From an archaeon (GTDB taxonomy: Archaea; Iainarchaeota; Iainarchaeia; Iainarchaeales; CSSED10-239): 32,000 bases of DNA. A model generated the notes under the pieces. That model worked only from the letters and a program-made list of their open reading frames with translations, did not search any database and was not told where the DNA came from. Shown here piece after piece: positions 6,755 through 30,782 of the stretch; position 1 is the first letter of the stretch, and every line of letters begins with the position of its first letter. The stretch lies in the NCBI GenBank assembly GCA_041657425.1, contig JBBABY010000003.1, positions 30,001 to 62,000 of the forward strand. The letters are read 5' to 3'. The translations under genes and the position numbers were made by a program.

Positions 6755-6803
6755 TCCTCTTACATAGGGGAAAGTATAAATGATTTGAAAACATATAAGT
6801 TAT

Positions 6804-6887: not shown

Positions 6888-6889
6888 TC

Positions 6890-6974: not shown

Positions 6975-6993
6975 TCCCATTGTGGGAAATCGA

Positions 6994-7075: not shown

Positions 7076-7078
7076 TTT

Positions 7079-9019: not shown

Positions 9020-9450
9020 ACTTTAAATTTTGTAGCCACTGCTCCATATCCACATTGGTTGCATTTTGCAGCAGGGGTGTATTTTCCATCAATACTCTTT
9101 TTAGTTCCATTCTTTTTTATATTATTAGAACCACACTTTGGGCATTTCATATCTACCGAAACATGTTCTGTATGTTTCCCAAACATCGGGTTATTTTCTC
9201 CCATTTTAGATTTACTTATATTTTCGCAATGTTCTTTAGTTCGTAGAGGTTTTGGTTTATTTTTTAAAGCGGCACTAATTTTTTTACCAGTTTCATTAGG
9301 CATTTTCTCTCCTTTATTCCACGGTTCTATACCTTTATGCGATTCGCTCATTTTAACGAGAGTGTCTTTTTCTGGATGTTTATTCATATGAGAATTTCTT
9401 TGTCTCTCCAACCAAAGCGCGTGTTTTATAGGGTCTTTTGGTGCTACCAT
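9016..9450 (-). CDS. NUMOD3-repeat protein with C-terminal zinc ribbon (paralog of the N-terminus of 8147..9019)
   Basis: APKDPIKHALWLERQRNSHMNKHPEK parallels PPKDPAKYNEWIRKNREAHTDKHPSQ. It has a CPKCG...CNQCG ribbon and no HNH motif. It makes an ATGA overlap with the next gene. Confidence 0.7.
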   Translation of the reverse strand: MVAPKDPIKHALWLERQRNSHMNKHPEKDTLVKMSESHKGIEPWNKGEKMPNETGKKISAALKNKPKPLRTKEHCENISKSKMGENNPMFGKHTEHVSVDMKCPKCGSNNIKKNGTKKSIDGKYTPAAKCNQCGYGAVATKFKV

Positions 9451-12622: not shown

Positions 12623-13198
12623 TCAATGATTTGAAATTATAATACAAGGAATCATCTTCCAATGATCCCCGTGTTCCATTTGACACATGAAATCCCCATC
12701 GTTATCCGAATATGATATATCATAGAGAATAAACCTTTCATCCATTTCACGAACGAGAGATTGCACCATCAGAGTGTTCCACGTTCTACCGGCAGATTTC
12801 ATTTTCTTTATAACTTTTTCGCGCTCATCGGGTTCAAAATTATATCCGTGGTTGTGCGGGTCGCAACAAGTATCTACAAATTTATATGTAAACATTGATG
12901 TATCTGGTTGTGTTCCGCCCTTCGTGTAAGAAACGAGATATTTTTCTACCTTATTCAACTCACATAGCTCTTTAAGATGAACATCATCCCATACACGCTT
13001 AAGACATTCACGGTATGTATAGGGATAGTTGGGTTCTGTGATATTAAGATCGATTTTTGTTTCGTCGCGTGTAAAGAGTCCTTCCCAATTAAATAATCCC
13101 TTTTCGCACCATTCTTCGAATGTTTTGCATTCGGGATCGATGCCTACGATGAATGAGCTGCTTGACGAGTTTGAAACAAACCCACTTCTAGTCTTCAT
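12623..13198 (-). CDS. SNSSSSSF-motif paralog 1 (191 aa)
   Basis: It starts MKTRSGFVSNSSSSSFIVG. It makes an ATGA overlap with the stop of the radical SAM C-fragment. Confidence 0.75.
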   Translation of the reverse strand: MKTRSGFVSNSSSSSFIVGIDPECKTFEEWCEKGLFNWEGLFTRDETKIDLNITEPNYPYTYRECLKRVWDDVHLKELCELNKVEKYLVSYTKGGTQPDTSMFTYKFVDTCCDPHNHGYNFEPDEREKVIKKMKSAGRTWNTLMVQSLVREMDERFILYDISYSDNDGDFMCQMEHGDHWKMIPCIIISNH

Positions 13199-14004
13199 GA
13201 TTTTTTACCTCCAAATTCAAGATTAAATAATGGGCAATTTCTACACCCGTTTTTATCTTTGTTCCCGATAACCGATGATCGGAAACGGTTAAATTGTTCA
13301 TTGTTCCATACATCTGTAGTAAAGTCGTTGATATTAAGCATATCGATTCCGGTGTATCCACATTCGTTTTCGCTAAACGAGCATGGATATGCTTTTCCTT
13401 CAACATTAATATACATGCTGAATAACGTAGATTCACACGGTTCAATGCTTTCTACGTGTTCGGGCATAAGAGCCATCACTTTTGGTGCGCTGCACGAGTC
13501 AAACCCAAATCTCACGTTGTTGGATTTTAATACGTTCATAAGTTCTTTGTAATGTGCTTCAGAAACCGAGTGTAGGCTGTTTCTATCACCTTTTGGTTTC
13601 AACCACAGGAATACTACAGCGTTAAGATAACGGGCGAGCAATGGGTCATTGCGAGCCTTGTGCACGATGTTCATACACTTATCAAATGTCTCTTCTGATA
13701 AGAGGCAGTGGATGTTGACCTGTGATAATCCACGATTGCCAAGTTCGGTGATTGCAGTGCGGCATGTTTCGTAATCATACAGGGAAACGGCAACAGCGCC
13801 ACATAGAGAAGACAATTTTTCATAATCTGTAGGGGTCATACGGGAACCGTTGATCGTGATGTTTGGAATAACACCATTGTTCCGACAATGTTGCATAATG
13901 GAATATAGATCCGGATTAGTAAGTATATATTCTTTTTTATATTCGTATATATTTTGTTCTTTCATGTATTCATTTTCACCAATAATTTCCCATTCCCCAT
14001 TCAT
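13195..14004 (-). CDS. radical SAM enzyme, C-terminal fragment with SPASM/twitch-type auxiliary-cluster domain
   Basis: It has a TIM-barrel continuation (NPDLYSIM...ITINGS). CESTLFSMYINVEGKAYPC fits CX9-15GX4C, and CRNC follows. It lacks the CxxxCxxC motif, which lies in 14639..14983. Confidence 0.85.
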   Translation of the reverse strand: MNGEWEIIGENEYMKEQNIYEYKKEYILTNPDLYSIMQHCRNNGVIPNITINGSRMTPTDYEKLSSLCGAVAVSLYDYETCRTAITELGNRGLSQVNIHCLLSEETFDKCMNIVHKARNDPLLARYLNAVVFLWLKPKGDRNSLHSVSEAHYKELMNVLKSNNVRFGFDSCSAPKVMALMPEHVESIEPCESTLFSMYINVEGKAYPCSFSENECGYTGIDMLNINDFTTDVWNNEQFNRFRSSVIGNKDKNGCRNCPLFNLEFGGKKS

Positions 14005-14642
14005 AATTTTTTCCTCCTATTAATACACGGTGGTCTCATAACAACATGTCTTTTCTTTAAAACATTATTTACTTTTTTCTTGCCAATATTTAGAACCTTT
14101 GCAATTTTAAAAATACCATATATTTTATATAAATTTACTATTTCATCTTCCAATTCACTCGTCAAATGAATGGAATTGGCATTACTTATTTCCATTTTTG
14201 TTTTTTCCGAATGTGTTTTTCCGAAAAATGAATTTTTTTCTCCAACTCTTTTTTTACCGCAGTTGGATATTATTTGTTTCTGTGAATCTGGTAAATGTTT
14301 ACCATACATATGATTTTTATCGCCCTTGTGACTTTCCCCCATTTTTAATCTTGTTGTTTCTGATGGGAAAACACCAAGTTTTCCAGACCCACCCAATGCT
14401 ATATTATATCCAACATTTAAATTTGTAGAATTAAAATGTGTAATCCAGTATTGTTCTTTTTCATTTAATTCTTCTTGTGTTTTACAATATTCCAAAATCT
14501 CCTTTTTAAAATTATGTTTACCGTATTTTCCCACAGCGTTTTTTATTAAAATGCCCGAACCCAAATATAGTGGTCTGTTTTTGGTGTCTTGACCAATATA
14601 TATTTTATTATTAATCAAATTTGTTATTTTATAAATAATCAT
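14001..14642 (-). CDS. GIY-YIG homing endonuclease (I-TevI/Seg-like) with NUMOD3 repeats and C-terminal HTH
   Basis: IIYKITNLINNKIYIGQD...YWI...GYNI (GIY-YIG). Repeats SETTRLKMGESHKG and HSEKTKMEIS. The C-terminus is IFKIAKVLNIGKKKVNNVL. ATGA overlaps occur at both ends. Confidence 0.9.
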   Translation of the reverse strand: MIIYKITNLINNKIYIGQDTKNRPLYLGSGILIKNAVGKYGKHNFKKEILEYCKTQEELNEKEQYWITHFNSTNLNVGYNIALGGSGKLGVFPSETTRLKMGESHKGDKNHMYGKHLPDSQKQIISNCGKKRVGEKNSFFGKTHSEKTKMEISNANSIHLTSELEDEIVNLYKIYGIFKIAKVLNIGKKKVNNVLKKRHVVMRPPCINRRKKL

Positions 14643-20878: not shown

Positions 20879-21049
20879 TTATCTCCTCATCCCTCCTAAC
20901 ATCCCACCAACCAATCCAAGACCTAACCCGAGAACAGCAAGATTTCCAACAGTTCTCATGGTGCTATCTAGACCGTCGCGTTCTCTTACATACACGACGC
21001 GTGTTTTTGGTGTTTGTGGTTTTCGTTTTGTTGTAGTTTTGCGGGGCAT
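20879..21049 (-). CDS. small tail-anchored basic protein (56 aa)
   Basis: The internal ATG has GGAGG about 11 nt upstream. The product is MPRKTTTKRKPQTPKTR...LAVLGLGLGLVGGMLGG. Confidence 0.5.
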   Translation of the reverse strand: MPRKTTTKRKPQTPKTRVVYVRERDGLDSTMRTVGNLAVLGLGLGLVGGMLGGMRR

Positions 21050-21054
21050 GATTA

Positions 21055-21270
21055 TTACTTCCTCCGTTTTGAATGAATTGGTTTTCTCGGTTTCCAACCG
21101 GGTTCCGCCCACGCGGGGTTATGAATCCACACAGATGATTTACCATTTGCAAGTTTCTTTATCTTTACTTCCATTCCATATTTACGCATTAATTCTGCTT
21201 CATCTTTTGCATATGCTAGTGAAATATTTACTTCTCGCGGTTCCCATAATTTACCATCAATCTTCTTCAT
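21055..21270 (-). CDS. small-protein family member p
   Basis: KKIDGKLWEP...YAKDEAELMRKYGMEVKIKK fits the family pattern described in the findings. Confidence 0.6.
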   Translation of the reverse strand: MKKIDGKLWEPREVNISLAYAKDEAELMRKYGMEVKIKKLANGKSSVWIHNPAWAEPGWKPRKPIHSKRRK

Positions 21271-21271
21271 C

Positions 21272-21493
21272 TTACTTTCTCCGGTAATAAATCAACCACT
21301 CATTATGATGTGGTTCTTTCACAACTCTCACCAGATAACCACGATTCCTCATATGATCGGCAACTTCGTCTGCTCCCGATTTGGTCATGATTTCTTCGTG
21401 GTATAATCGATAAACCTTGTCGTCAAAACGCTTGGTTCTCTTGTGCGGCTTTTCGCCGGGTTCTTTTTCGTTAAATGCACTGTGAGTTTTCAT
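21272..21493 (-). CDS. small-protein family member o
   Basis: An internal ATG has GAGGA upstream. DKVYRLYHEEIMTKSGADEVADHMRNRGYLVRVVKEPHHNEWLIYYRRK. Confidence 0.6.
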   Translation of the reverse strand: MKTHSAFNEKEPGEKPHKRTKRFDDKVYRLYHEEIMTKSGADEVADHMRNRGYLVRVVKEPHHNEWLIYYRRK

Positions 21494-21510
21494 GATTTCA
21501 TCCTCAATCT

Positions 21511-21690
21511 TTATTTCTTTCGTTTTGCAATCCAAATTTCGTATCCTTTTAATGCGGGGGTTGTAGAATCTATTGATTTTACTAGAAACCCCATTTCTTC
21601 TAATTCAACCGTATATTTGTTCACTTCTGTTTTTGTAAAGACATGTGAAAATTGTGAATAAATCCGATTCCCAAATTTCTTTGTTGTCAT
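21511..21690 (-). CDS. small-protein family member n (ORF extends to 21774)
   Basis: ATG 21690 has GGAGAGGG upstream. FGNRIYSQFSHVFTKTEVNKYTVELEEMGFLVKSID...YEIWIAKRKK. Confidence 0.55.
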   Translation of the reverse strand: MTTKKFGNRIYSQFSHVFTKTEVNKYTVELEEMGFLVKSIDSTTPALKGYEIWIAKRKK

Positions 21691-21842
21691 ATTAATCCCT
21701 ATTCCCTCTCCTTCTTCCACACAAATTGATGTTGAGTCCTGCGCAAACTTTTCGTGAATAATGTTGTAAATCATTATTTATGGTATGTTCGCGCGGTGCT
21801 TCTTGATTTCGATCTCGAATAATTATAATGCGGTCACCCATC

Positions 21843-22067
21843 TCATTTCACCTTACCCCTTACAGCCACACAGAAAGGATGAGCGCCATACAAACGATTT
21901 TCCTTAATGCGTGGAAATAGGATAACTTCTTTGTAAGTATTAGTCTTGCGTAACTTATTAATAAACTTTTCGGCATCTTGCTTCTTGGAATACATGCGAA
22001 TTATAGTAAAGATTTTATTACCGATCTTTTGTCTGATGCCGGGGTGGGCTTCCAAATAATTTGACAT
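21843..22067 (-). CDS. small-protein family member m
   Basis: ATG 22067 overlaps the upstream stop (TAATG). IGNKIFTIIRMYSKKQDAEKFINKLRKTNTYKEVILF. Confidence 0.6.
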   Translation of the reverse strand: MSNYLEAHPGIRQKIGNKIFTIIRMYSKKQDAEKFINKLRKTNTYKEVILFPRIKENRLYGAHPFCVAVRGKVK

Positions 22068-22228
22068 TAACTTCTCTTCACTCCTCTCCATTTACCATCT
22101 TTATAATGAAGCATCATTATTAATTTATGTCCAGACTTCTTGCATTTGGAATAATATTTCGTTGCCTCCGCCTTTGTGGGAAATATTTTTGCTTTTTTTC
22201 CTTCTGATACAACAGACCATTTTGACAT
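22067..22228 (-). CDS. small-protein family member l (53 aa)
   Basis: MSKWSVVSEGKKAKIFPTKAEATKYYSKCKKSGHKLIMMLHYKDGKWRGVKRS. It is below the ORF-track cutoff and abuts both neighbours. Confidence 0.45.
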   Translation of the reverse strand: MSKWSVVSEGKKAKIFPTKAEATKYYSKCKKSGHKLIMMLHYKDGKWRGVKRS

Positions 22229-22444
22229 TTAATCACCTTCAATAATAGTAATCACTTTATCCGCCCACACGCGATCAGAATCCTTTTCCTTATTTGTAAG
22301 TTTATTATATGGCGTCTCAATTTGTTCTTTCCAACGTTTAATATTTTCAGGAGTTAAATTATTGAGCATGTATTTTGTCCAATGCGCCCATTGCTGATGT
22401 TCTAGATCAGATAATTTTTCGCGTGTGGATTTAGAGATTTTCAT
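22229..22444 (-). CDS. hypothetical protein, weak RyR-domain-like pattern
   Basis: An internal ATG gives MKISKSTREKLSDLEHQQWAHWTKYML...TPYNKLTNKEKDSDRVWADKV (E..W...W .. pY..L...EK..DR). Confidence 0.55.
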   Translation of the reverse strand: MKISKSTREKLSDLEHQQWAHWTKYMLNNLTPENIKRWKEQIETPYNKLTNKEKDSDRVWADKVITIIEGD

Positions 22445-22448
22445 TATA

Positions 22449-22751
22449 TCACTTCTTCCCCATAGATGAAAAAGACATTGTTGCAAATACTTTTCCACCT
22501 GCGTTCAAACTTGGAGGAAACTCAACTCTTTCGCACCCATGTTTTCTGGCAATGGAAATCGCGCGTGTTGCTTCTTCTTTTGTCAGATATCGATAAGGAG
22601 GAGTGCGGTTTTTGGAAAGAAAAGAAATATATCCACGATAACCATGACCAGCACAACTTTGTTCAGTTTTATAACCCTTCTTATTTAATTCCAACACCAA
22701 TGATTTTATTTCGGGATCGATTGGTACAGATTTTGAACCATAATGTCTCAT
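22449..22751 (-). CDS. hypothetical protein (100 aa)
   Basis: ATG 22751 makes an ATGA overlap with the upstream stop. It contains LELNKKGYKTEQSCAGHG. Confidence 0.6.
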   Translation of the reverse strand: MRHYGSKSVPIDPEIKSLVLELNKKGYKTEQSCAGHGYRGYISFLSKNRTPPYRYLTKEEATRAISIARKHGCERVEFPPSLNAGGKVFATMSFSSMGKK

Positions 22752-23038
22752 GTTGCCCTCTTCCCCATCCGGCCAAAATCTACGTCTGAACTCCATCGTG
22801 CGCTGTCGCTCCAATGTCGGAGGTGTTTTTCCGCCCTCTCCCTTGCATTCTTCATATTCATCGCGCCTTCGGGTGGTTGAACAACAGTATGATTTCCCGC
22901 CCCCGGGTGACTATGAATAATAAGGTATTTCGGACGCACTTCCATGTTTAATCTTATAGCAACAAAAACATTTGGATTCTTCTTATGGGTATATATAGTT
23001 TTCGCTTTGTTTTCATTCCAGTTTGGGTATTGGGTCAT
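22748..23038 (-). CDS. hypothetical protein with HSHP motif (degenerate JAB/MPN-like?)
   Basis: 96 aa. The strand-rich N-terminus is followed by YLIIHSHPGAGNH. The S..D part of the JAMM motif is absent. Confidence 0.55.
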   Translation of the reverse strand: MTQYPNWNENKAKTIYTHKKNPNVFVAIRLNMEVRPKYLIIHSHPGAGNHTVVQPPEGAMNMKNARERAEKHLRHWSDSARWSSDVDFGRMGKRAT

Positions 23039-23041
23039 GAT

Positions 23042-23284
23042 CTACCTCTTCATATCTTTTACATATTCAAGAAACGTTAAATATGCAAATTTCTTTCCAT
23101 CTTCCGTTGATTTAAATCCTTGAATATTACGAAAAGAAAAAACACCCATTAAATCATCAGAAGTTATAAGAGGACTGTGACCACCTTTTTGTTTCCAAAA
23201 CATATTAAAGGCGTCTTTGGTGTTTGTGTAAACTTTTTGTGTTTGCCCCCCGTTTGCCTTGTTATAAATCACAATATATTTCAT
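23042..23284 (-). CDS. hypothetical small protein
   Basis: 80-aa ORF in operon context. Confidence 0.6.
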   Translation of the reverse strand: MKYIVIYNKANGGQTQKVYTNTKDAFNMFWKQKGGHSPLITSDDLMGVFSFRNIQGFKSTEDGKKFAYLTFLEYVKDMKR

Positions 23285-23412
23285 TCTCTACCACCAATCT
23301 TCCCTCTTGCTAACGTCTCCCAAATACTGAAGGGTTTAAGATATGTCTTCTGATCGGTTGCTACTCTCACTTTCGGTTCGCCTTTTAAATGGAGACGGAG
23401 AAGTTCGGACAT
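23281..23412 (-). CDS. possible 43-aa ORF
   Basis: MSELLRLHLKGEPKVRVATDQKTYLKPFSIWETLARGKIGGRE. It makes an ATGA overlap with the downstream gene. Confidence 0.35.
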   Translation of the reverse strand: MSELLRLHLKGEPKVRVATDQKTYLKPFSIWETLARGKIGGRE

Positions 23413-23414
23413 GA

Positions 23415-23618
23415 TTATACTATGGGTTCCATATGTTCAATCATACCATCAACACTTCGCTTTTGCACAATAGAACTACTTACACGTGACATGCCTTCAT
23501 AAGCAGCAAATTTTTGTTTTGCTTGTTTTACAGAAGTTGCGATGACAGGCCGAAAATGCGAAGTGCCAATAAATCCAATATAGAAAATTTTCGGTTCACC
23601 GGTTTGTGGTTTTGGCAT
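23415..23618 (-). CDS. hypothetical small protein
   Basis: 67-aa ORF. IFYIGFIGTSHFRPVIATSVKQAKQKFAAYEG is weakly family-like. Confidence 0.55.
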   Translation of the reverse strand: MPKPQTGEPKIFYIGFIGTSHFRPVIATSVKQAKQKFAAYEGMSRVSSSIVQKRSVDGMIEHMEPIV

Positions 23619-23624
23619 AATAAA

Positions 23625-23864
23625 TCACCACGGAACAGTATGTCTTTTATCAATAGTTGACGTGCCGAAAGTTGCCATACATTCATATTTAAAAGATTTC
23701 ATAGCGTCTTTCTTATTTCCGTAAAGCATTCCAATACTTTTCCCATTTTTCTTTACTTCGTATCCTGTATATGTCACACCGGGTTTCTGCGCATCTTTTA
23801 CAGTAACGTGTTCAAATGTAACGGTTCCATAACCTTTCTTTGTTTTGGTTTTGAGGACGGTCAT
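23625..23864 (-). CDS. hypothetical small protein
   Basis: 79-aa ORF. GYEVKKNGKSIGMLYGNKKDAMKSFKYE. Confidence 0.6.
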   Translation of the reverse strand: MTVLKTKTKKGYGTVTFEHVTVKDAQKPGVTYTGYEVKKNGKSIGMLYGNKKDAMKSFKYECMATFGTSTIDKRHTVPW

Positions 23865-23870
23865 GATATC

Positions 23871-24128
23871 TCACTTGTTAGCACGGTCAGCATTCAACAG
23901 CGCAACCGCACGCTTCTTCATAAGAGGGGTAACTTTGACCATTTTATCCCCAGTGGAAGTCGGATTGTGCGCTACGGAACCCAAAGGAGTGTCCACAATT
24001 GCTTGCAGGAATGTCAGAGGAATCTTTTCTGTGGTCGATACACCGAGCTGCTTGTGGAATACACCTTTACCAGCTCGCTTAAAGGCTTGCTGCATCCAGA
24101 GGTTTTGTTTTGTCATGTTCATCATCAC
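23871..24128 (-). CDS. hypothetical protein of a KG.LHKQLG...IP...L...RA.lA.N type
   Basis: AGKGVFHKQLGVSTTEKIPLTFLQ...LMKKRAVALLNADRA. I recall this pattern as recurrent in phage and bacterial small proteins, with unknown function. Confidence 0.6.
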   Translation of the reverse strand: MMMNMTKQNLWMQQAFKRAGKGVFHKQLGVSTTEKIPLTFLQAIVDTPLGSVAHNPTSTGDKMVKVTPLMKKRAVALLNADRANK

Positions 24129-24340
24129 CTTCTAAAATACACACCATAGTTTTCAGGTGTAACATCATCTTTTTTAATATTATGTTTAGTAACAACAGAT
24201 TTGAAACCCGCTTCTTCAACTCTTATTTTTGCGCGGGTTGCATCATATTCTGTGGAATACTTTTCATAAACCATTAATGTTCCAATGCCTGCTACTTGTA
24301 TTGTTTTCGGGTATCCTTTAACAATAATGGATTTGGGCAT
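24125..24340 (-). CDS. small-protein family member k
   Basis: YEKYSTEYDATRAKIRVEEAGFKSVVTKH...YGVYFRR. Confidence 0.6.
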   Translation of the reverse strand: MPKSIIVKGYPKTIQVAGIGTLMVYEKYSTEYDATRAKIRVEEAGFKSVVTKHNIKKDDVTPENYGVYFRR

Positions 24341-24362
24341 GGTGTTTATCTTTAATGATTAA

Positions 24363-24578
24363 TTATTTTTTTCTAATAAGCAACATTTCCCAACCGGGAG
24401 ATTGACTTTCTTTTCCTTTTACGATTCTTGCTAGATACCCAGATTCGCGATACTCTTCTGCCATCTTCCCCAATTTACCTTTTTCATTAGAAGAATATAC
24501 AGCAGTGAAATTCTTTCCGTCAATTTTCTTAATAAGATCCATTTTCTTGTTTAGTTTGTTCAATTTGTTTAATACCAT
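24363..24578 (-). CDS. small-protein family member j
   Basis: ATG 24578 has AAGGAGG 7 nt upstream. KKIDGKNFTAVYSSNEKGKLGKMAEEYRESGYLARIVKGKESQSPGWEMLLIRKK. Confidence 0.6.
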   Translation of the reverse strand: MVLNKLNKLNKKMDLIKKIDGKNFTAVYSSNEKGKLGKMAEEYRESGYLARIVKGKESQSPGWEMLLIRKK

Positions 24579-24615
24579 TTTATTTCCTCCTTTATAATAA
24601 TCCCAGATAGTCTGG

Positions 24616-24774
24616 CTACTCTCTATTCCCACCCCGCCCACCAAGGATATGTACCTTCCCCAATGGATTTTTTGACATCATAGTATTCTCACCATCGGGT
24701 TGAAGGGCAACTCTATCAGTTCCCCCACCCGCTTCCTTTGCACGGCTCATAAGGCCAAAGATATCGACTTTCAT
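24616..24774 (-). CDS. possible 52-aa ORF ending GGRGGNRE
   Basis: The internal ATG of ORF 24616..24852 begins 1 nt after the stop of 24776..24940. It is a paralog of that ORF. Confidence 0.4.
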   Translation of the reverse strand: MKVDIFGLMSRAKEAGGGTDRVALQPDGENTMMSKNPLGKVHILGGRGGNRE

Positions 24775-24775
24775 C

Positions 24776-24940
24776 TCAATCCCTGTTTCCACCTTTACCG
24801 GCAATGTTCCTAAATCTTCCAAGCAGTCCATTAGAAAGCATGCTTTCTCCACCAGAACCCGGAATACTATCTTGGCGTTCCTTCGTGTATCCAGCAGTGC
24901 GATCCATCATCCCTTTTAAATCCGGTCTTGTAATGCTCAT
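24776..24940 (-). CDS. possible 54-aa ORF ending GKGGNRD
   Basis: Its ATG makes an ATGA overlap with the stop of 24937..25128. The product is MSITRPDLKGMMDRTAGYTKERQDSIPGSGGESMLSNGLLGRFRNIAGKGGNRD. It is below the ORF-track cutoff and competes with the 5' part of ORF 24616..24852. Confidence 0.4.
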   Translation of the reverse strand: MSITRPDLKGMMDRTAGYTKERQDSIPGSGGESMLSNGLLGRFRNIAGKGGNRD

Positions 24941-25128
24941 AAAGTTCTAACTTTCCCGAGGATTTTACTTGTTTCCTCTTTGGTTTTACCCCATGCATTA
25001 TTTGCATCAAGCGGTTGCCCATGATGCTTATTATGGAGTATCACTTGATCAGTTGTATGCTCCATGTTCTTAAACCTTTTGGTTAGTTTTTCATTTTCTT
25101 CTTCTGCTACATCGAATAGGTGTTTCAT
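24937..25128 (-). CDS. hypothetical small protein
   Basis: 63-aa ORF with ATGA overlaps on both sides. Confidence 0.55.
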   Translation of the reverse strand: MKHLFDVAEEENEKLTKRFKNMEHTTDQVILHNKHHGQPLDANNAWGKTKEETSKILGKVRTL

Positions 25129-25325
25129 TTTTTCATCCTCCCATAAATTAGATATCCACCATGATCTTCTCTGCCATCAACAGAGCAAATCATAACTCCT
25201 TGTTCTCCAAGACGTTTCTTTTCAATAGAAACTGCTCGCTTATGTGGAACAACTTCTATAAATTCATATCTATGACCACGATATTCATGTGTTGCTGGAT
25301 AAGGAATTGGTTTTTTAGATTTCAT
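25125..25325 (-). CDS. small-protein family member i
   Basis: YRGHRYEFIEVVPHKRAVSIEKKRLGEQGVMICSVDGREDHGGYLIYGRMKK. Confidence 0.6.
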   Translation of the reverse strand: MKSKKPIPYPATHEYRGHRYEFIEVVPHKRAVSIEKKRLGEQGVMICSVDGREDHGGYLIYGRMKK

Positions 25326-25522
25326 TTCCTCTCCACCATCTTCTTCGTCTCTTTCTCCACACGCTCTACAACATCAGAAACAATCTTTTTCATTGATTCT
25401 GCACTAGACATCTTTTTGTGTGCTTCACAATGCGACTTTGAAACGTCTTTGTGTAAAGTGTTATATTTTAATACATCAATAGGATTGGTTTTTTCCAATC
25501 CGCTGATTATGAGTTCTTTCAT
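25322..25522 (-). CDS. hypothetical helical small protein
   Basis: 66-aa ORF with an ATGA overlap downstream. Confidence 0.55.
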   Translation of the reverse strand: MKELIISGLEKTNPIDVLKYNTLHKDVSKSHCEAHKKMSSAESMKKIVSDVVERVEKETKKMVERK

Positions 25523-25523
25523 T

Positions 25524-25778
25524 TCACTTCTCCCTCACATGTGCAGGAACATTATCCGCACCAACCGGATTGATATTACCAGTTGATGGGTGGAACTTAA
25601 AGAAAGCCCTGTTGCCCCCAGCGTGTGTTATAACAATATAGTTGTCTCCCGTTTCACTATCATATCTCGTTCCATACTTATCACCACGGAAGAATTTCAT
25701 TGTCTCGCGGTCGAAGAAATGACCACTTGATCGATTCTTCATTTCCTGTAATGTATATCTACGTGTTTTGCCGGTCAT
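25524..25778 (-). CDS. hypothetical protein with GHFFDRETMKFF motif
   Basis: 84 aa. The N-terminus MTGKTRRYTLQEM is paralogous to the N-terminus of 25782..25973. I recall the HFFd..tMrFF pattern as recurrent in phage proteins of unknown function. Confidence 0.65.
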   Translation of the reverse strand: MTGKTRRYTLQEMKNRSSGHFFDRETMKFFRGDKYGTRYDSETGDNYIVITHAGGNRAFFKFHPSTGNINPVGADNVPAHVREK

Positions 25779-25781
25779 GAT

Positions 25782-25973
25782 TTACCAATCCCTCACATGA
25801 GCAATTTCATTAAGATGTTTTCTATCCCACGCAATAAATATTCGTGGGCCGTGTCCAGCACGGTTTTTAGCGGTGTACATTGTACCCGATGTGCCATCGG
25901 TCAACTTGAGATCTTTAACCCCAAGATATCTTGCGATTTCTTTAATTGTGTGTTTTTGTGTTTTGCCGGTCAT
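25782..25973 (-). CDS. hypothetical small protein (N-terminal paralog of 25524..25778)
   Basis: MTGKTQKHTIKEIARYLGV... Confidence 0.6.
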   Translation of the reverse strand: MTGKTQKHTIKEIARYLGVKDLKLTDGTSGTMYTAKNRAGHGPRIFIAWDRKHLNEIAHVRDW

Positions 25974-26015
25974 TTTTTTAATCCCCCCAACTATCTGGAA
26001 TTACCAGATAGTTCA

Positions 26016-26210
26016 TTAATATCGTTCTCCTTTTGGTGTATAACACCATTCTCCGGCTTTGTTTCTCCAAACTTCCCTACCATCATTAATTATAACACCT
26101 TGATCATTAGACCAACGATATATCTGATGGCGCTTTGTCCCTTTGGAAGTTTTATGTCCAAGTCTATTAACAACCCATATTTGTGCTGTAACTTTCTTAA
26201 GTTTTGTCAT
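26016..26210 (-). CDS. hypothetical small protein
   Basis: 64-aa ORF rich in Trp and basic residues. Confidence 0.6.
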   Translation of the reverse strand: MTKLKKVTAQIWVVNRLGHKTSKGTKRHQIYRWSNDQGVIINDGREVWRNKAGEWCYTPKGERY

Positions 26211-26220
26211 TTCTTACACC

Positions 26221-26367
26221 TCAATATTTCTTATCCACACGCCACCCTTTGGCGACTTGCACAACTTTAGCACCCATACCGAGAGATCTTGCTTGTTTTG
26301 CAATCTCCTGTGCTGTTGATTTTAAGTGGTGAATTGTTCCACCTTTTGAATATCCGCCATATATAGT
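26221..26367 (-). pseudogene. small-protein family member h lacking its own in-frame start
   Basis: TIYGGYSKGGTIHHLKSTAQEIAKQARSLGMGAKVVQVAKGWRVDKKY is in frame with the upstream gene across a single TAA (26368-26370). The nearest ATG (26358-26360, with GAGGGG 10 nt upstream) is off by one frame. Confidence 0.4.
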
Positions 26368-26580
26368 TTAATCCCCTCTTACCTTTGTTGGTTCTCCACC
26401 AACCATTCTCCACTGCTCATATCCACGATATGTTGGAGCATCGTAGCGCATAATGAGAATGCTTCGCTTCCTTCCGGTTCTTAATTCGGTCTTTGCACGG
26501 TCCACCGCCGTGGATTTCTTTTCAAAGAAGGCGTTTCCACCGTCTTCGCGAATTCCTTCTATCATATACTTCTTAATCAC
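26368..26580 (-). CDS. small-protein family member g
   Basis: FFEKKSTAVDRAKTELRTGRKRSILIMRYDAPTYRGYEQWRMVGG. Confidence 0.6.
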   Translation of the reverse strand: MIKKYMIEGIREDGGNAFFEKKSTAVDRAKTELRTGRKRSILIMRYDAPTYRGYEQWRMVGGEPTKVRGD

Positions 26581-26584
26581 GGAA

Positions 26585-26785
26585 TCATCCCCTCTCCTTG
26601 CTTCTTAACCACAGTGTGTAATAATACACCGGGCTGTTAATTCCAATGTCTCTTTTCTTTTCAATTCTTACAAGCATGTTTCTAGACGCTCTCATTTCTT
26701 TCGCTGCCTGCTCTGCTTCACGCTTGTTTGGAAAGTCGCGATATGGTCCGCGATATTGTTTCCCATCAAATACTTTAATCTTCAC
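26585..26785 (-). CDS. small-protein family member f (GTG start)
   Basis: GTG has AGGAGG 8 nt upstream and makes a GTGA overlap with the upstream stop. FDGKQYRGPYRDFPNKREAEQAAKEMRASRNMLVRIEKK...YYYTLWLRSK. Confidence 0.6.
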   Translation of the reverse strand: MKIKVFDGKQYRGPYRDFPNKREAEQAAKEMRASRNMLVRIEKKRDIGINSPVYYYTLWLRSKERG

Positions 26786-26958
26786 GGAATCATCCTCCTA
26801 ACACGCTCGCTGTCTTTTACTACGCGGGCATTTGCTTTATGATAATTTTCATTTGTTTCATCTGCATATCGCTGTGCTCGCCATTTATCTTCAGTAGTCC
26901 AATCAGTGGCAAGACGTTTGCCCCGATTGTTAGTCATTGTTACACGATATTTTGTCAT
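26782..26958 (-). CDS. possible 58-aa ORF, weakly family-like
   Basis: MTKYRVTMTNNRGKRLATDWTTEDKWRAQRYADETNENYHKANARVVKDSERVRRMIP. GGAG is upstream. It is below the ORF-track cutoff. Confidence 0.45.
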   Translation of the reverse strand: MTKYRVTMTNNRGKRLATDWTTEDKWRAQRYADETNENYHKANARVVKDSERVRRMIP

Positions 26959-26959
26959 T

Positions 26960-27178
26960 TTATACTCCTTTGATTTTATCCTTAATAAATTCTTTCACAT
27001 AATCTGGAATGTTTTCCGACGACCACGAAATCCTACCGCTTTTCATAAGCAGGAATTGATATTTCAGATCATCTTTAGCAATCCACCCTTCTATATAAGC
27101 GCGCTCGTGTGTTGACTTTGGAACTTTTACTATCTCAACTTTCCAGTTTTTGACTTTGTAATCGTGTACAGTGGTCAT
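26960..27178 (-). CDS. hypothetical small protein (paralog of 27175..27399)
   Basis: ATG 27178 makes an ATGA overlap. The C-terminus ENIPDYVKEFIKDKIKG parallels GSIPTYIKNKVKTAF in the upstream gene. Confidence 0.6.
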   Translation of the reverse strand: MTTVHDYKVKNWKVEIVKVPKSTHERAYIEGWIAKDDLKYQFLLMKSGRISWSSENIPDYVKEFIKDKIKGV

Positions 27179-27399
27179 TTTACATTCCACCCATATCCTT
27201 TTGCAAATGCAGTTTTCACTTTATTCTTTATATAAGTTGGGATAGAACCGGGATAATCATAAGCAATCTTTTTGTTGTATGGATACATAATTGCATAATC
27301 AACAAATGCTTTGGTTCTACTTTCTATACGAATTTCATGATGTCTTTCGTTTGCCCATGATAGAATCCACTGATCATTCTTAAAAATTTGTGTGGCCAT
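27175..27399 (-). CDS. hypothetical small protein
   Basis: 74-aa ORF. See 26960..27178. Confidence 0.6.
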   Translation of the reverse strand: MATQIFKNDQWILSWANERHHEIRIESRTKAFVDYAIMYPYNKKIAYDYPGSIPTYIKNKVKTAFAKGYGWNVK

Positions 27400-27401
27400 T
27401 C

Positions 27402-27638
27402 TTAAACCCTCGCTCCTTTAGCAACAAACACTCCATATCGAAGTCGCCCTGCTTCCGGACCAAGATCCACAACAATAGCAAGTGTCATATTGTTTGGATA
27501 CGTGCGCCCCGCTTGTGTTCCCAAGTCACGCGCTGACGCTTTTGCAGTCTGCACGTTTTCATATGCATCATAAATCGAATAAATGTGACCACGGAATGCA
27601 TATCGCGTGGTGTCTGGTGATTTTGCTCTGTGGATCAT
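27402..27638 (-). CDS. small-protein family member e (divergent)
   Basis: FRGHIYSIYDAYENVQTAKASARDLGTQAG...LAIVVDLGPEAGRLRYGVFVAKG. Confidence 0.6.
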   Translation of the reverse strand: MIHRAKSPDTTRYAFRGHIYSIYDAYENVQTAKASARDLGTQAGRTYPNNMTLAIVVDLGPEAGRLRYGVFVAKGARV

Positions 27639-27639
27639 T

Positions 27640-27807
27640 TTAGTTCACCATATATTTATTAGCAAGTCTGTTTCTTGCAGCAGCAACTTCATTTGCTTGA
27701 TCTTTATTCATAATGTCGATGGCTTTAACATATTTACCACGGATCTTTCCACCGTTTACATGCCAACGATCAAGTTTCTTTGATTTCGTTACTTTAAATT
27801 TTGCCAT
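27640..27807 (-). CDS. possible 55-aa basic ORF
   Basis: MAKFKVTKSKKLDRWHVNGGKIRGKYVKAIDIMNKDQANEVAAARNRLANKYMVN. It makes a TAATG overlap upstream. It is below the ORF-track cutoff. Confidence 0.45.
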   Translation of the reverse strand: MAKFKVTKSKKLDRWHVNGGKIRGKYVKAIDIMNKDQANEVAAARNRLANKYMVN

Positions 27808-27992
27808 TATGCCTTCTCCCTCCTCTGAATCATCCTATGTGAATACTTCTTTTCATTGTCACGATAATCTTTAAGTCTTTCTTTTGCTTCACGGTAATTT
27901 TCTGTGGAAATAAGATCGTCCCATCCATATCCATAATTACCCTGCACTACATAAAGATATTCGTATTTGTTGTGTGCTGCTTGTAGGGTCAT
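27807..27992 (-). CDS. hypothetical small protein with QGNYGYGWDD motif
   Basis: YEYLYVVQGNYGYGWDDLISTENYREAKERLKDYRDNE. I recall this pattern as recurrent in phage genomes, with unknown function. Confidence 0.6.
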   Translation of the reverse strand: MTLQAAHNKYEYLYVVQGNYGYGWDDLISTENYREAKERLKDYRDNEKKYSHRMIQRREKA

Positions 27993-28204
27993 TGCTTTCT
28001 CATAGGAACTTTAACAAGTGACTTTTCCGACCACGTTAAGTATTGTCCTTGTGGACCATGCACCTTATAGTGCCAACCAAGATGTCCTTCAAATCTATAA
28101 TCGATGTGTCCAATTTTCCCAATATAATATGACAATTCCTTTACTTTGACAACATCCCCTATTTTATATTTAGGTTTTCTTACATTTCTCCCATTGTAGT
28201 ACAT
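27989..28204 (-). CDS. hypothetical small beta-rich protein (SH3/KOW-like pattern)
   Basis: KYKIGDVVKVKELSYYIGKIGHID... with an ATGA overlap. Confidence 0.6.
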   Translation of the reverse strand: MYYNGRNVRKPKYKIGDVVKVKELSYYIGKIGHIDYRFEGHLGWHYKVHGPQGQYLTWSEKSLVKVPMRKQ

Positions 28205-28206
28205 TT

Positions 28207-28440
28207 TTAAATCACCACAATCCTCCCGCCTCTAGAAGAGGTGGGAACTAATGTAATTTTGTTGTTCTCAAGATCTTTACGAATTTCTGATTGCCCTACA
28301 GATACAGGTACAGGATCTTCCATGTCTCCAAGAATCTTCACTTTGTAAGGAAGTGTGCGACCACCTACACGACGGCCCTTTGGGACGGTCATTGTGAGGT
28401 TGCCACCAGCGCGGGAGTAGCGGCCTATTTCTATACTCAT
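28207..28440 (-). CDS. hypothetical small protein
   Basis: 77-aa ORF in operon context. Confidence 0.6.
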   Translation of the reverse strand: MSIEIGRYSRAGGNLTMTVPKGRRVGGRTLPYKVKILGDMEDPVPVSVGQSEIRKDLENNKITLVPTSSRGGRIVVI

Positions 28441-28601
28441 TTCCTAATCCTCTTCACAATCTTTTTCTTCGCTGCATCCACACGCAAAATCTCACGTGCT
28501 TCTGGTTTTGTCATCCCACCCATTATTAATGCGCCTTCATCGCTCATTTTGAGTGTTGCTTTTGCAATTTTAACTTGGTGGTTCCAAAATACATCGGGCA
28601 T
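28437..28601 (-). CDS. hypothetical small protein (54 aa from internal ATG)
   Basis: ATG 28601 has GGAGGAAG upstream and lies 3 nt after the upstream stop. The product is MPDVFWNHQVKIAKATLKMSDEGALIMGGMTKPEAREIL. Confidence 0.55.
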   Translation of the reverse strand: MPDVFWNHQVKIAKATLKMSDEGALIMGGMTKPEAREILRVDAAKKKIVKRIRK

Positions 28602-28603
28602 GA

Positions 28604-28786
28604 TTACTTCCTCCACCCACGATAAACCACGTATTCTTTTCCAACTTTCTTTATAAAGCTGTACCAACCGTTCTTTTTTAAGTATTCTTTTTCACGCGTT
28701 GCTTCTGCTTTTCTAGAAACAATTGCACCGCGCTGATATTCAATATTTCCTTTTATAATTTTTAACGGGCCGTAATTTGTGGTCAT
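28604..28786 (-). CDS. small-protein family member d
   Basis: YQRGAIVSRKAEATREKEYLKKNGWYSFIKKVGKEYVVYRGWRK. Confidence 0.6.
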   Translation of the reverse strand: MTTNYGPLKIIKGNIEYQRGAIVSRKAEATREKEYLKKNGWYSFIKKVGKEYVVYRGWRK

Positions 28787-28788
28787 GA

Positions 28789-28992
28789 TTATTCACTCCC
28801 TCTCCAATAAACATGATATTTATCATATCCATGAAACGTTTGATGGACAACTCTTGCCATCAGTCCTTTATATTTGAGATTTTTTACCCAATTTTTCGCG
28901 TCCTGTTTATTATTAGCAGGGTTATTATAATAGTAATAATGACCATCAATTAATTTGCGTTTGGGCATTCCATATGCTTCTTGCTCGGACAT
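28789..28992 (-). CDS. small-protein family member c
   Basis: KLIDGHYYYYNNPANNKQDAKNWVKNLKYKGLMARVVHQTFHGYDKYHVYWRG. Confidence 0.6.
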   Translation of the reverse strand: MSEQEAYGMPKRKLIDGHYYYYNNPANNKQDAKNWVKNLKYKGLMARVVHQTFHGYDKYHVYWRGSE

Positions 28993-28994
28993 AA

Positions 28995-29171
28995 TTATTT
29001 TCTCCTCGTATAAACATTATAAAATCCGGGTCGCTCTTTTTCTATACGCGTATAGTAACCTTCGTCTTCATACTTCTTTTGCCAGTTGCGCGCGCTCTTT
29101 AAACTGCGCACAGTGTGCTTCTTTCGAAAAAGCATACCGCCAAAGCGTTCAAATTTCTCTGTGTCAGGCAT
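28995..29171 (-). CDS. small-protein family member b (58 aa)
   Basis: MPDTEKFERFGGMLFRKKHTVRSLKSARNWQKKYEDEGYYTRIEKERPGFYNVYTRRK. GGAGAAAA is upstream. It is below the ORF-track cutoff. Confidence 0.5.
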   Translation of the reverse strand: MPDTEKFERFGGMLFRKKHTVRSLKSARNWQKKYEDEGYYTRIEKERPGFYNVYTRRK

Positions 29172-29173
29172 TG

Positions 29174-29383
29174 TTATTTTCTCCGTATATAAATATCTAC
29201 AACCATAAATCCATTTTCATCTCGCGTATTTACTGCGCGAACAAGCCATCCTTGCTGCTTAAGTTTCGCTACTTCAATTTCGATTTGGTTCCCACGATGA
29301 ATAGCCATGCGGTCTTGAAGTTTGAATGTTTTCCCACTAAATTGGCGTGTCTTTTTAACAGTGTATCTTTTATCAAATGACAT
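29174..29383 (-). CDS. small-protein family member a
   Basis: AAGGAGG is upstream. FSGKTFKLQDRMAIHRGNQIEIEVAKLKQQGWLVRAVNTRDENGFMVVDIYIRRK. Confidence 0.6.
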   Translation of the reverse strand: MSFDKRYTVKKTRQFSGKTFKLQDRMAIHRGNQIEIEVAKLKQQGWLVRAVNTRDENGFMVVDIYIRRK

Positions 29384-29398
29384 GATTATTTACCTCCT

Positions 29399-29560
29399 TT
29401 AAATTGTAAGTATATATTTCTGGGTTGGTGTCAACTTTCGCTTATGAGATTGACTTCTCTTTATAGATTTTAATGTTCGATTTGCCCCTCTACCTGTAGC
29501 AATATTTCTACCAATGTGAGGGTTGCTTCTCTGTGATGGTTTGTGTGATTGTCTTATCAT
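29399..29560 (-). CDS. possible 53-aa highly basic ORF, first gene of the long operon
   Basis: MIRQSHKPSQRSNPHIGRNIATGRGANRTLKSIKRSQSHKRKLTPTQKYILTI. GAGAGAGG is upstream, and TATA-like boxes lie at 29591-29630 on the minus strand. Confidence 0.4.
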   Translation of the reverse strand: MIRQSHKPSQRSNPHIGRNIATGRGANRTLKSIKRSQSHKRKLTPTQKYILTI

Positions 29561-29791
29561 TTTTCAACCTCTCTCAATTTATCTCACAAAAGGAGACATT
29601 TTGATATATAAATCTACACTCTCATTATATTTAAACGTTTGCTTTAAGAAGAGAATTTATAAAAAAGATATCTTATTTTATATTTTTATTTTGAGAGAGT
29701 GTGTGGTGAAAACATGCCAAGAAGCACATACCTTGTTCCTTCGGGAACACTCACCTTCAGGATTTAGAAGGATCATCGCCGGGATAAATAT

Positions 29792-29944
29792 TTAATGGGT
29801 GAATGAATCACAACCTTTTAAATCCGATTTTTTGAAATCACATTTGGCATTTTTACAATATTCACAGATTGGAACAATCATTCCGGGTAGATACCCTCTC
29901 CAAACACCATCCTTTTTATCGTATCCAAATCGTGGTTTAATCAT
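29792..29944 (-). CDS. possible 50-aa Cys-containing ORF
   Basis: MIKPRFGYDKKDGVWRGYLPGMIVPICEYCKNAKCDFKKSDLKGCDSFTH. It is below the ORF-track cutoff. The plus-strand ORF 29799..30020 is the competing model. Confidence 0.4.
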   Translation of the reverse strand: MIKPRFGYDKKDGVWRGYLPGMIVPICEYCKNAKCDFKKSDLKGCDSFTH

Positions 29945-29957
29945 TATAATTACCAAA

Positions 29958-30110
29958 TTAAATTGTTGTCACCAATTCATATGGTGGTATGATTATCCCC
30001 ATTGCACACATATGTGGTAAATCATCAATTTTATGTGTTTTAAAAATACATTCTCTTAATGATCCACAACTATTACACTTCCAAATATATGTGTATCTCA
30101 TATCTTCCAT
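29958..30110 (-). CDS. possible 50-aa zinc-ribbon-like ORF
   Basis: MEDMRYTYIWKCNSCGSLRECIFKTHKIDDLPHMCAMGIIIPPYELVTTI. It starts 9 nt after the stop of the NTase gene. Confidence 0.4.
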   Translation of the reverse strand: MEDMRYTYIWKCNSCGSLRECIFKTHKIDDLPHMCAMGIIIPPYELVTTI

Positions 30111-30119: not shown

Positions 30120-30782
30120 TCAATTTTTAATCCTTACTCGAAATCCATCAAAGATTTCGATCATCCTTATATCATATAAGAAATCTTCAAATGGTTTGGG
30201 GTCTGTTTCATCTGGCAACATAGATTTTTCTTTTGCAATATCTAGATATCTAAACCACTTTCCAATATTCTCATTTGTTACTTCATCTTCCGGTGGTTCA
30301 AATTCAATTTTGTGGTTCATCAACATTGTAACACCAAATTGAAGCGTTCGCATGGTTGCTGCTTTGCTTTTCATAGGGTCTTTTACTGTTGCGTGTTTTA
30401 TTGCGTCGTTAAGTTGTGAATGTGCCATTCCATTGATTGACGCATAAGATGATTTGGAAAGATTGTTAATTGCAATTTCGCGGAGTTTTACTAGCCATTC
30501 GCTATTCTTATGAACGATTGGTGAACAAACACTCCATATTGCATTCACATTGCCTTTCTTAAGCAGATAAACAAGATGCCCAATTTCCATATATTGTGCA
30601 TCAATTTCTTTACCTTCGTAAATGTAAGATTTTGCTGCGCGTGTCTTTTCAAATGTGCTGGTTCGTAAATACTCCAATGATGGTTGCTGAAATACATGAA
30701 ACAAATCATAATCCGAATCTGGTTTATTCATCCCCCACATGCGGGAACCTACTTCGGTGGTGAAAAGGTAATAGACGGTCAT
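30120..30782 (-). CDS. Pol-beta superfamily nucleotidyltransferase (RlaP/PF10127-like)
   Basis: The N-terminus is VGSRMWGMNKPDSDYDLFHVF (GS-x9-DxD NTase signature), followed by a helical C-terminal domain. The product is 220 aa. Confidence 0.8.
   Translation of the reverse strand: MTVYYLFTTEVGSRMWGMNKPDSDYDLFHVFQQPSLEYLRTSTFEKTRAAKSYIYEGKEIDAQYMEIGHLVYLLKKGNVNAIWSVCSPIVHKNSEWLVKLREIAINNLSKSSYASINGMAHSQLNDAIKHATVKDPMKSKAATMRTLQFGVTMLMNHKIEFEPPEDEVTNENIGKWFRYLDIAKEKSMLPDETDPKPFEDFLYDIRMIEIFDGFRVRIKN

Follow-up and report, generated by a model that had tools for sequence, protein, structure and literature searches.

A 32,000-nucleotide stretch of contig JBBABY010000003.1 (positions 30,001 to 62,000), referred to here in its full length as the window, is part of an uncultivated virus of approximately 139 kb and carries on its minus strand a long array of tiny genes for basic proteins. 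A sequence-only reading of this DNA had proposed that at least 16 open reading frames (ORFs) in the array are diverged copies of a single small module with a β-α-β-β pattern, expanded within one genome into a diversified binder family that could not be assigned to any known family. The question that the locus raises is whether these ORFs belong to one family at all and, if so, what fold they share, how far the family extends and why one virus would keep so many copies. We find that ten of the ORFs are firm members of one real family, with 14 members probably present, that the module is predicted to form a small ββαββ domain, and that relatives of the domain occur widely in metagenomic mobile elements. 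Binding of nucleic acid through the open face of the β-sheet is tentatively put forward as the single most likely function.

The array that holds the family is given first, since all members lie within it.

20879..29560, minus strand: array of approximately 40 co-directional tiny genes (45–121 amino acids, aa) that includes every family member, from the ORF map and public gene calls on the twin contig L009

Membership of the family

Single-sequence phmmer comparisons between the members are weak, giving 15 bits or less, and membership was therefore decided using profiles and controls. A hidden Markov model (HMM) built from seven mutually best-matching members recovered three more above 800 composition-matched shuffles and the other ORFs of the window. 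When HMMs were built with each of these ten window members left out in turn, the missing member was recovered at E values of 6e-9 to 1.7e-2, and every one of the ten outranked all 800 composition-matched shuffles and 347 other window ORFs. An external profile, built from 125 metagenomic representatives that include some orthologues of the window paralogues, matched the ten at E 7e-21 to 1e-6, the best of 800 shuffles reaching 0.043. Iteration over related contigs gave the same ranking at convergence, with none of 1809 shuffles included.

Profile–profile comparison was carried out with hhalign, using each array gene together with its orthologues against the family, and 114 reversed or column-shuffled controls, of which the best reached E 2.5e-3. 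The ten firm members gave probabilities of 95–99.7%, and in addition four ORFs, those starting at 26221, 28604, 27402 and 26782, lay beyond all 114 controls. This comparison, the check by which the proposed family could be judged, is thus significant for the ten and for the four probable members, and is not significant for the ORFs at 24125, 22067 and 26368. As a negative control we searched 12,058 ORFs from 1.32 Mb of Methanomicrobiales DNA, none of which fell below E 0.6, and profile searches of the 32-kb window gave no family member outside the array.

Ten ORFs are firm members of one family, and the family numbers at least ten copies in the array and probably 14. The earlier count of at least 16 copies holds in part: ten of the 16 listed ORFs are firm and three are probable (28604, 26221 and 27402), while two are within noise (24125 and 22067) and one (26368) is unsupported. 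The fourth probable member, at 26782, had not been listed. The ORF coordinates and translations themselves were correct and match both the public gene calls on twin contigs and the lengths of the orthologues. All candidates are listed below, with the hhalign probability and, for some, the ratio of nonsynonymous to synonymous substitution rates (dN/dS) against orthologues.

29174..29383, minus strand: firm member, 69 aa; leave-one-out E 6.7e-7; external profile E 1.1e-10; hhalign 98.0%; dN/dS 0.06
28995..29171, minus strand: firm member, 58 aa, the minimal module; leave-one-out E 1.9e-5; external profile E 2.8e-14; hhalign 98.3%; 30 orthologue clusters; dN/dS 0.05–0.16
28789..28992, minus strand: firm member, 67 aa; leave-one-out E 7.6e-8; external profile E 9.9e-16; hhalign 98.8%
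28604..28786, minus strand: probable member, 60 aa; external profile E 6.4e-4; iterated profile E 6e-4; hhalign 86.9%, E 4.2e-6; dN/dS 0.05
27402..27638, minus strand: probable member, 78 aa, with an insertion between the helix and strand 3; external profile E 0.013; hhalign 52.6%, E 1.4e-4; dN/dS 0.04–0.14
26782..26958, minus strand: probable, diverged member, 58 aa, absent from the earlier list; hhalign of the orthologue profile 82.3%, E 1e-5, over 37 columns; undetected by single-sequence HMM searches
26585..26785, minus strand: firm member, 66 aa, GTG start; leave-one-out E 2.8e-6; external profile E 4.6e-12; hhalign 97.8%
26368..26580, minus strand: listed earlier, no support, 70 aa; hhalign 2%, E 0.025, within the range of the controls; absent from the HMM match lists
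26221..26367, minus strand: probable member, a complete module of 48 codons; hhalign 91.5%, E 8.5e-7; iterated HMM E 9e-4 to 6e-3
25125..25325, minus strand: firm member, 66 aa; leave-one-out E 8.4e-4; external profile E 2e-11; hhalign 97.1%; dN/dS 0.14–0.19
24363..24578, minus strand: firm member, 71 aa; leave-one-out E 6.5e-8; external profile E 1.2e-15; hhalign 98.9%
24125..24340, minus strand: listed earlier, within noise, 71 aa; hhalign 9%, E 3.6e-3; iterated HMM E 0.06–0.08 against 0.2 for the best shuffle; fits the pattern by eye only
22067..22228, minus strand: listed earlier, within noise, 53 aa; hhalign 5%, E 7.3e-3; iterated HMM E 0.14 against 0.2 for the best shuffle
21843..22067, minus strand: firm member, 74 aa, with a 6-residue insertion after the helix; leave-one-out E 5e-3; external profile E 2.8e-10; hhalign 98.1%; 31 orthologue clusters; dN/dS 0.09–0.19
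21511..21690, minus strand: firm member, 59 aa; leave-one-out E 2.5e-5; external profile E 6.6e-13; hhalign 97.9%
21272..21493, minus strand: firm member, 73 aa, nearest to the family consensus; leave-one-out E 6.2e-9; external profile E 7.3e-21; hhalign 99.7%; dN/dS 0.08–0.12
21055..21270, minus strand: firm member, 71 aa, strands 3 and 4 being separated by a long insertion; leave-one-out E 1.7e-2, better than any shuffle; external profile E 1.1e-6; hhalign 95.0%

The probable member at 26221–26367 has no ATG, GTG or TTG start, its first codon being ACT, and the gene calls for L009 omit it. It follows the TAA stop of 26368–26580 immediately and in frame, and four independent assemblies from different samples (L009–L012) agree exactly in this sequence, ruling out a sequencing error at the TAA. 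Possible explanations are read-through of the stop codon to give a fusion protein, initiation at a non-canonical (ATA) start, or a decaying copy. The GTG-start genes 26368–26580 and 26585–26785 share a near-identical start junction, GGATGATTCCGTGA (26575–26591 and 26780–26796; repeat family D3), and the GTG start of each is overlapped by a mini-ORF of three codons (M-I-P-stop).

Fold and conserved residues

AlphaFold2 modelling covered one window member and the two modules of a tandem relative, P0091; the fold of the other members was taken from the alignment. The 58-aa product of 28995–29171, modelled from a 34-sequence alignment, gave a predicted local distance difference test score (pLDDT) of 83 and a predicted TM-score (pTM) of 0.62. 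The model has strands at residues 7–10 and 13–21, a helix at 24–37 and further strands at 39–47 and 50–57, which is a hairpin–helix–hairpin (ββαββ) preceded by a basic, unstructured N-terminus. The pattern proposed from the sequence had the right core, to which the model adds one N-terminal strand that pairs in a hairpin with the G-K-x-Y strand. In P0091 two ββαββ modules were each predicted with pLDDT above 90, joined by a low-confidence (disordered) linker, and the pTM of the whole was 0.50. The module of approximately 50 residues is thus predicted to be an autonomous domain, and the model shows no confident packing of one copy against the other.

The family signature is [KR][KR]-F-x-G-K-x-[YF] ... 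[TS]-K-x-x-A-x(3)-A-x(2)-[LY]-R-x(2)-G-[YWF]-x-[AV]-R-[IV]-[VI] ... [YW]-x-[VI]-[YW]-x-R, with a Lys/Arg tail after it. The surface-type Arg, Tyr/Trp and Arg residues are conserved across the whole superfamily, while the surface of the helix and the loop between strands 3 and 4 vary among members. One face of the four-stranded sheet would be covered by the helix, with the other face left open. In this arrangement the [YWF]-x-[AV]-x-[IV] residues of strand 3 and the Y-x-V of strand 4 would face the helix, and the open side would carry the near-invariant Arg of strand 3 together with the aromatic-x-Arg of strand 4. The members have pI values of 9.5–10.5 and basic N- and C-terminal tails, and none has a signal peptide, a transmembrane segment or any hydrophobic segment (maximum 15-residue hydropathy of 0.9 or less). 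Such strongly basic proteins are unlikely to act as anti-defence decoys in the sense of DNA mimics, one of the roles suggested earlier.

Breadth and evolution of the family

When 1.84 billion cluster representatives were searched exhaustively with the family profile, 1271 metagenomic clusters (50% identity) matched at E ≤ 1e-3. Most of these relatives are stand-alone basic proteins of 55–75 aa, with the consensus ...KKFdGKxY..(8)..tKseAekvAkkLRkkGYlaRVvk..(3-10)..gYxVYvRkk. Approximately ten are tandems, the 697-aa protein P0086 contains at least three modules on Lys-rich linkers, and two distant relatives, P0101 and P0172, have an N-terminal hydrophobic anchor. Three distant members that were looked up lie on other mobile-element-like contigs with a GC content of 50–55%, one of which has four copies. 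Because members also occur on contigs of this GC content, the family is not an artefact of AT-rich composition. The domain has a wide distribution among metagenomic mobile elements.

Word-index homologue searches returned only orthologues of single window paralogues, from the same viral clade. Related contigs of this clade (L001, L003, L004 and L006–L008) carry between 6 and 17 family copies each in a syntenic array, bearing out the proposal of a large intragenomic expansion of a tiny module, one that is conserved across the clade. Between the ten firm paralogues the amino acid identity is 11–34%, with a median of 21%. Comparison with orthologues gave dN/dS values of 0.04–0.19, which amounts to purifying selection in each paralogue tested. 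DNA repeats in the array are confined to junctions of 15–43 nt at ribosome-binding sites and start codons, and recent tandem duplication is ruled out on this ground. The duplications are old and each copy is maintained individually; that purifying selection preserves every one of them in the related viruses shows them not to be redundant. From the sequences it remains reasonable to regard the family as a set of diversified binders, provided that the term is not taken to mean fast evolution, which is not supported, given the strong purifying selection on each paralogue between related viruses.

Source virus and probable host

The window has a GC content of approximately 38%. Small proteins identical to those of the window are encoded on public metagenomic contigs of approximately 138.9 kb, and the gene order is common to related contigs of 72–134 kb. 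In addition to the array the window encodes a family-B DNA polymerase (PolB; 2759–6130, plus strand), an RlaP nucleotidyltransferase (30120–30782), a SPASM-domain protein and homing-endonuclease genes. The nearest polymerases from deposited viruses belong to haloarchaeal tailed viruses and are 31–33% identical. A comparison using one genome per GTDB species gave nearer matches: aligned along its full length, the PolB of the viral clade has 50–54% identity with the PolB encoded in the chromosomes of Methanoregula, Methanolinea and Methanoculleus, and the matching Methanomicrobiales chromosomes include complete genomes. On account of this likeness the element is probably an archaeal virus with a host in the order Methanomicrobiales, which are methanogens, and the likeness suggests that genes have been exchanged between the virus and the host lineage. 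A scan for the 28995 orthologue group in one genome per GTDB species gave no provirus match, and so no host could be read from a provirus. The labels of metagenome-assembled genomes (MAGs) attached to the viral contigs contradict each other (Paceibacterota, "archaeon", Tissierellia), which is most simply explained as binning noise.

Possible functions of the module

Why would a virus keep ten or more such proteins? Nucleic-acid binding by the open sheet face is the answer that we lean towards, without claiming more for it than that it leads the alternatives, because the conserved basic and aromatic residues assigned to the open sheet occur together with Lys/Arg tails and with repeats on Lys-rich linkers. 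The open face would bind nucleic acid in the manner of the RNP/RRM, LAGLIDADG β-saddle and SPOR open-sheet binders, and each paralogue would owe its own target to its variable residues and to the variable loop that joins strands 3 and 4. On this reading the virus would use the small DNA- or RNA-binding proteins of the array on its own genome or transcripts or on those of its host.

Several points weigh against nucleic-acid binding and the setting in which we place it. Basic charge is not specific to the family, as all of the approximately 40 array proteins are basic, and it would be unusual for a single virus to have ten or more nucleic-acid binders that are paralogues. The diversity of the paralogues is explained equally well by protein targets. 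The conserved residues are placed on the open face by the alternation of residues along the strands and not by coordinates. Foldseek searches of the PDB and BFVD gave nothing significant (all E > 0.01, none < 0.05), neither structure nor sequence yields a significant relative whose function is known, and the resemblance to LAGLIDADG domains described below is at noise level, with the defining helix absent. The host assignment rests on one gene, PolB, and the viral GC content of 38% is far from the 52–56% found at the Methanoregula loci.

Protein targets are the basis of the next explanation, in which each paralogue would be a small inhibitor or modulator that binds a different host protein, for example one in defence, replication or transcription, and all would be expressed together to serve host takeover or anti-defence. 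This is possible, though we regard it as doubtful. The genes form a long run of tiny ORFs that match nothing in the databases, as in the early or accessory regions of phages and archaeal viruses, each of the many diverged paralogues has its own conserved set of orthologues, and the helix surface and the loop between strands 3 and 4 are variable, all of which fits this explanation. Anti-CRISPR families of archaeal viruses also occur as multi-paralogue families. On the other side there is no match in PADLOC or elsewhere, the strong purifying selection shows no sign of an arms race, and the tandem and multi-repeat forms on Lys-rich linkers suit the binding of a polymer better. The conservation of basic and aromatic surface-type residues over 1271 clusters from unrelated elements points instead to a common class of ligand.

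Nucleic-acid binding could also be cast in a more specific form, in which the module is a new minimal stand-alone "β-saddle" domain for nucleic-acid recognition. Archaeal viruses and other mobile elements would use it combinatorially, as single modules that pair up, in tandem or in multiple repeats, with each paralogue directed to its own DNA or RNA target, to reprogramme host or viral gene expression, and as a sub-case read-through of the TAA at 26368 would yield a two-module protein. With all of these parts taken together such a scheme is unlikely.

Less probable again are basic proteins that are packaged in the virion or condense the genome without sequence specificity, in the way of histones, protamines or internal proteins. 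The uniformly high pI, the Lys/Arg tails, the pI of 12 of the product of the first array gene (29399–29560) and the multiple modules of P0086 on Lys-rich linkers would suit such a role, but 10–17 distinct and individually conserved paralogues are needless for the bulk neutralisation of charge, and the array lies apart from any recognisable structural module in the window. It is very improbable that the module is a shortened SPOR domain for binding a polymer of the cell wall or another glycan of the cell envelope. Marginal Pfam matches in eight of 135 wider-family members and in the tandem relative P0087, a 37-residue superposition on CwlC and the N-terminal hydrophobic anchors of P0101 and P0172 speak for it, yet no window member matches SPOR, hhalign against the FtsN SPOR sequence gave a probability of 0.65%, and the module has no second α-β unit. 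The cell-wall binding suggested in the sequence-only reading is unlikely for the further reasons that the window members have no signal peptide, transmembrane or hydrophobic segment and that the probable host order, the Methanomicrobiales, has no murein. Finally, the chance that there is no real family and that the pattern is a by-product of Lys/Arg/Tyr-rich composition in short ORFs is negligible: the low phmmer scores, the similar basic composition across the array and the three of 16 listed ORFs that are inseparable from noise would agree with it, but it is refuted for the ten firm ORFs by leave-one-out recovery and by composition-preserving shuffles that reach E 0.043 at best against 1e-6 to 1e-21 for the members, and the thousands of external homologues and the confident, consistent fold predictions (28995–29171 and P0091) contradict it too.

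The array and its neighbourhood

Genes of the array, proposed in the sequence-only reading to be one operon, are separated by gaps of approximately 0–40 nt or overlap by 1–4 nt, and GGAGG-like ribosome-binding sites precede most of them. The products are all basic, with pI values of 8.0–12 and a median near 10, compared with a median of 6.7 for 25 other window ORFs. Orthologous arrays are syntenic in L001–L008, where they lie downstream of RlaP. Precomputed Pfam annotation of the array products on the twin contig L009 contains no matches, and a search of PHROGs with ten non-family array proteins gave none. In the syntenic arrays of L003, L007 and L008 there are genes with matches to Pfam DUF5661, and one weak match to the RyR domain is found in the orthologue of window gene 22229–22498.

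Upstream of the array is an AT-rich region in which TATA-like boxes, TTTAAATATAA and TTTATATAT, precede the first array gene.

29561..29791, minus strand: AT-rich intergenic region (230 nt) upstream of the array, a candidate promoter, with TATA-like boxes

The first array gene, 29399–29560, encodes a 53-aa protein with a pI of 12. The last, 20879–21112 (minus strand), is the sole array gene whose product has a hydrophobic Gly/Leu-rich C-terminal segment (maximum hydropathy 2.2), and it may encode a small membrane protein. A second, unrelated pair of paralogues is found within the array, formed by the adjacent genes 25524–25778 and 25782–25973 (minus strand), which both begin MTGKT and still have DNA repeats of 24–43 nt in common at their starts and ends (repeat families D2 and D5). 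Between RlaP and the array, at 29792–30110 (minus strand), are two Cys-rich mini-ORFs of 54 and 50 aa with CxxC-type spacing, which may be zinc-ribbon-like.

At the other end of the window, the PolB encoded at 2759–6130 (plus strand) is 1123 aa long compared with approximately 794 aa for its orthologues in related viral contigs, which align to it in two pieces. It therefore contains an insertion of approximately 330 aa, possibly an intein or an inserted homing-endonuclease-like element. Directly 3' of the polymerase gene, at 6261–7158 (plus strand), are seven tRNA genes (Leu-CAA twice, Leu-GAG, Leu-TAA, Ser-GCT, Ser-TGA and Thr-TGT), three of which are confirmed by Rfam at the gathering score. 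Free-standing homing-endonuclease-type genes and an adjoining gene for a SPASM-domain protein are also present in the window.

8147-9019, minus strand: HNH and NUMOD3 free-standing homing-endonuclease-type gene
9016-9450, minus strand: NUMOD3 homing-endonuclease-type gene
13195-14004, minus strand: gene for a SPASM-domain protein, adjoining homing-endonuclease-type genes
14001-14642, minus strand: GIY-YIG and NUMOD3 homing-endonuclease-type gene

Implications

Paralogous families of small proteins are already known from the accessory regions of viral genomes; the mini-domain described here is unannotated and its expansion is virus-specific. The family is new in that none of Pfam, NCBIfam and PHROGs contains a model of it and no structure of it has been solved, and its definition would annotate thousands of "hypothetical" small proteins in the genomes of archaeal viruses and mobile elements. 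If nucleic-acid binding by the open face is true, the module would be among the smallest autonomous recognition modules known, and its natural single, tandem and multi-repeat forms would be of interest both for viral host takeover and as a design scaffold. The conserved array downstream of RlaP, together with the host-related PolB, also provides a handle on a clade of viruses of approximately 110–140 kb known only from metagenomes, which probably infects the Methanomicrobiales, ecologically important methanogens.

Comparison with known families

Searches of Pfam, NCBIfam, PHROGs and PADLOC with the window members and with 135 relatives assigned no family and gave only marginal SPOR matches and one weak match to phrog_1212; none of the ten members matched a PADLOC-DB model. 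A profile search of PDB sequences returned only noise, mainly designed proteins with similar helix–strand junctions, and phmmer with P0087 against the PDB gave no matches. No match was obtained with tblastn of the consensus, P0107 and 21272–21493 against 50,697 deposited phage genomes, and literature searches for a described family or virus clade returned nothing relevant. The statement of the sequence-only reading that no family could be assigned is thus upheld across these databases, and what can be compared is the architecture of the module with that of known domains.

SPOR domains (CwlC, FtsN) share with the module a β-α-β-β unit made of a hydrophobic strand, a helix of the form A...A..L..G, a short strand and an aromatic-x-hydrophobic strand, and the SPOR ligand on the open sheet face serves as a working analogy. 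Eight of 135 wider-family members have marginal Pfam SPOR matches (best E 2.5e-4, range to 1e-2), P0087 scores 21.5 bits against a cut-off of 21, and in Foldseek 37 residues superpose on the CwlC SPOR domain at 1.2 Å, at a non-significant E of 1.3. The differences are larger. SPOR domains have approximately 70 residues against approximately 50 in the module, which has an extra N-terminal strand and no second α-β unit, and they are extracytoplasmic and act beside peptidoglycan, whereas the module proteins appear to be cytoplasmic and are strongly basic, with a probable host that has no murein. Membership of SPOR (PF05036) fails, with a Pfam match in none of the ten window members (E ≤ 1) and a single-helix ββαββ fold in place of βαββαβ.

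RRM or RNP-type domains are likewise small α/β domains with one sheet face covered by helix and one open, and they carry aromatic and basic residues on the strands, which in the module are placed by strand alternation. They have the order βαββαβ compared with ββαββ, and the module has neither a second helix nor RNP1 and RNP2 motifs; Pfam RRM matched none of 135 members. The loose likeness to SPOR and RNP folds noted earlier from the sequence therefore holds as a marginal resemblance to SPOR, and not as membership of either family.

The only full-length alignments given by Foldseek were to the β-saddle domains of I-DmoI, I-Tsp061I and WhiA, which have the homing-endonuclease-like fold. One module aligned over 62 columns (E 0.65–1, TM 0.45) and a tandem over 139–154 columns (E 0.05–0.1, TM 0.24–0.29). 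The ββαββ core is common to both, in the LAGLIDADG enzymes the open face of this core is the DNA-binding saddle, and both families have single-domain and tandem-domain forms. The LAGLIDADG helix, the catalytic acidic residue and the flanking helices are all missing from the module, and the likeness is one of topology only; membership of the LAGLIDADG homing endonucleases fails, with no Pfam matches and the LAGLIDADG helix absent.

As a genomic arrangement, the array can be compared with the AcrID1-type family of Sulfolobus viruses and the multigene families of large eukaryotic DNA viruses, which are reportedly multi-paralogue families of small proteins. In those families, as here, many diverged and mostly unannotated copies of a small protein are clustered in a viral genome. 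There is no relation in sequence or fold between them and the present family, whose copies have not been recently amplified but are old and have been kept by purifying selection.

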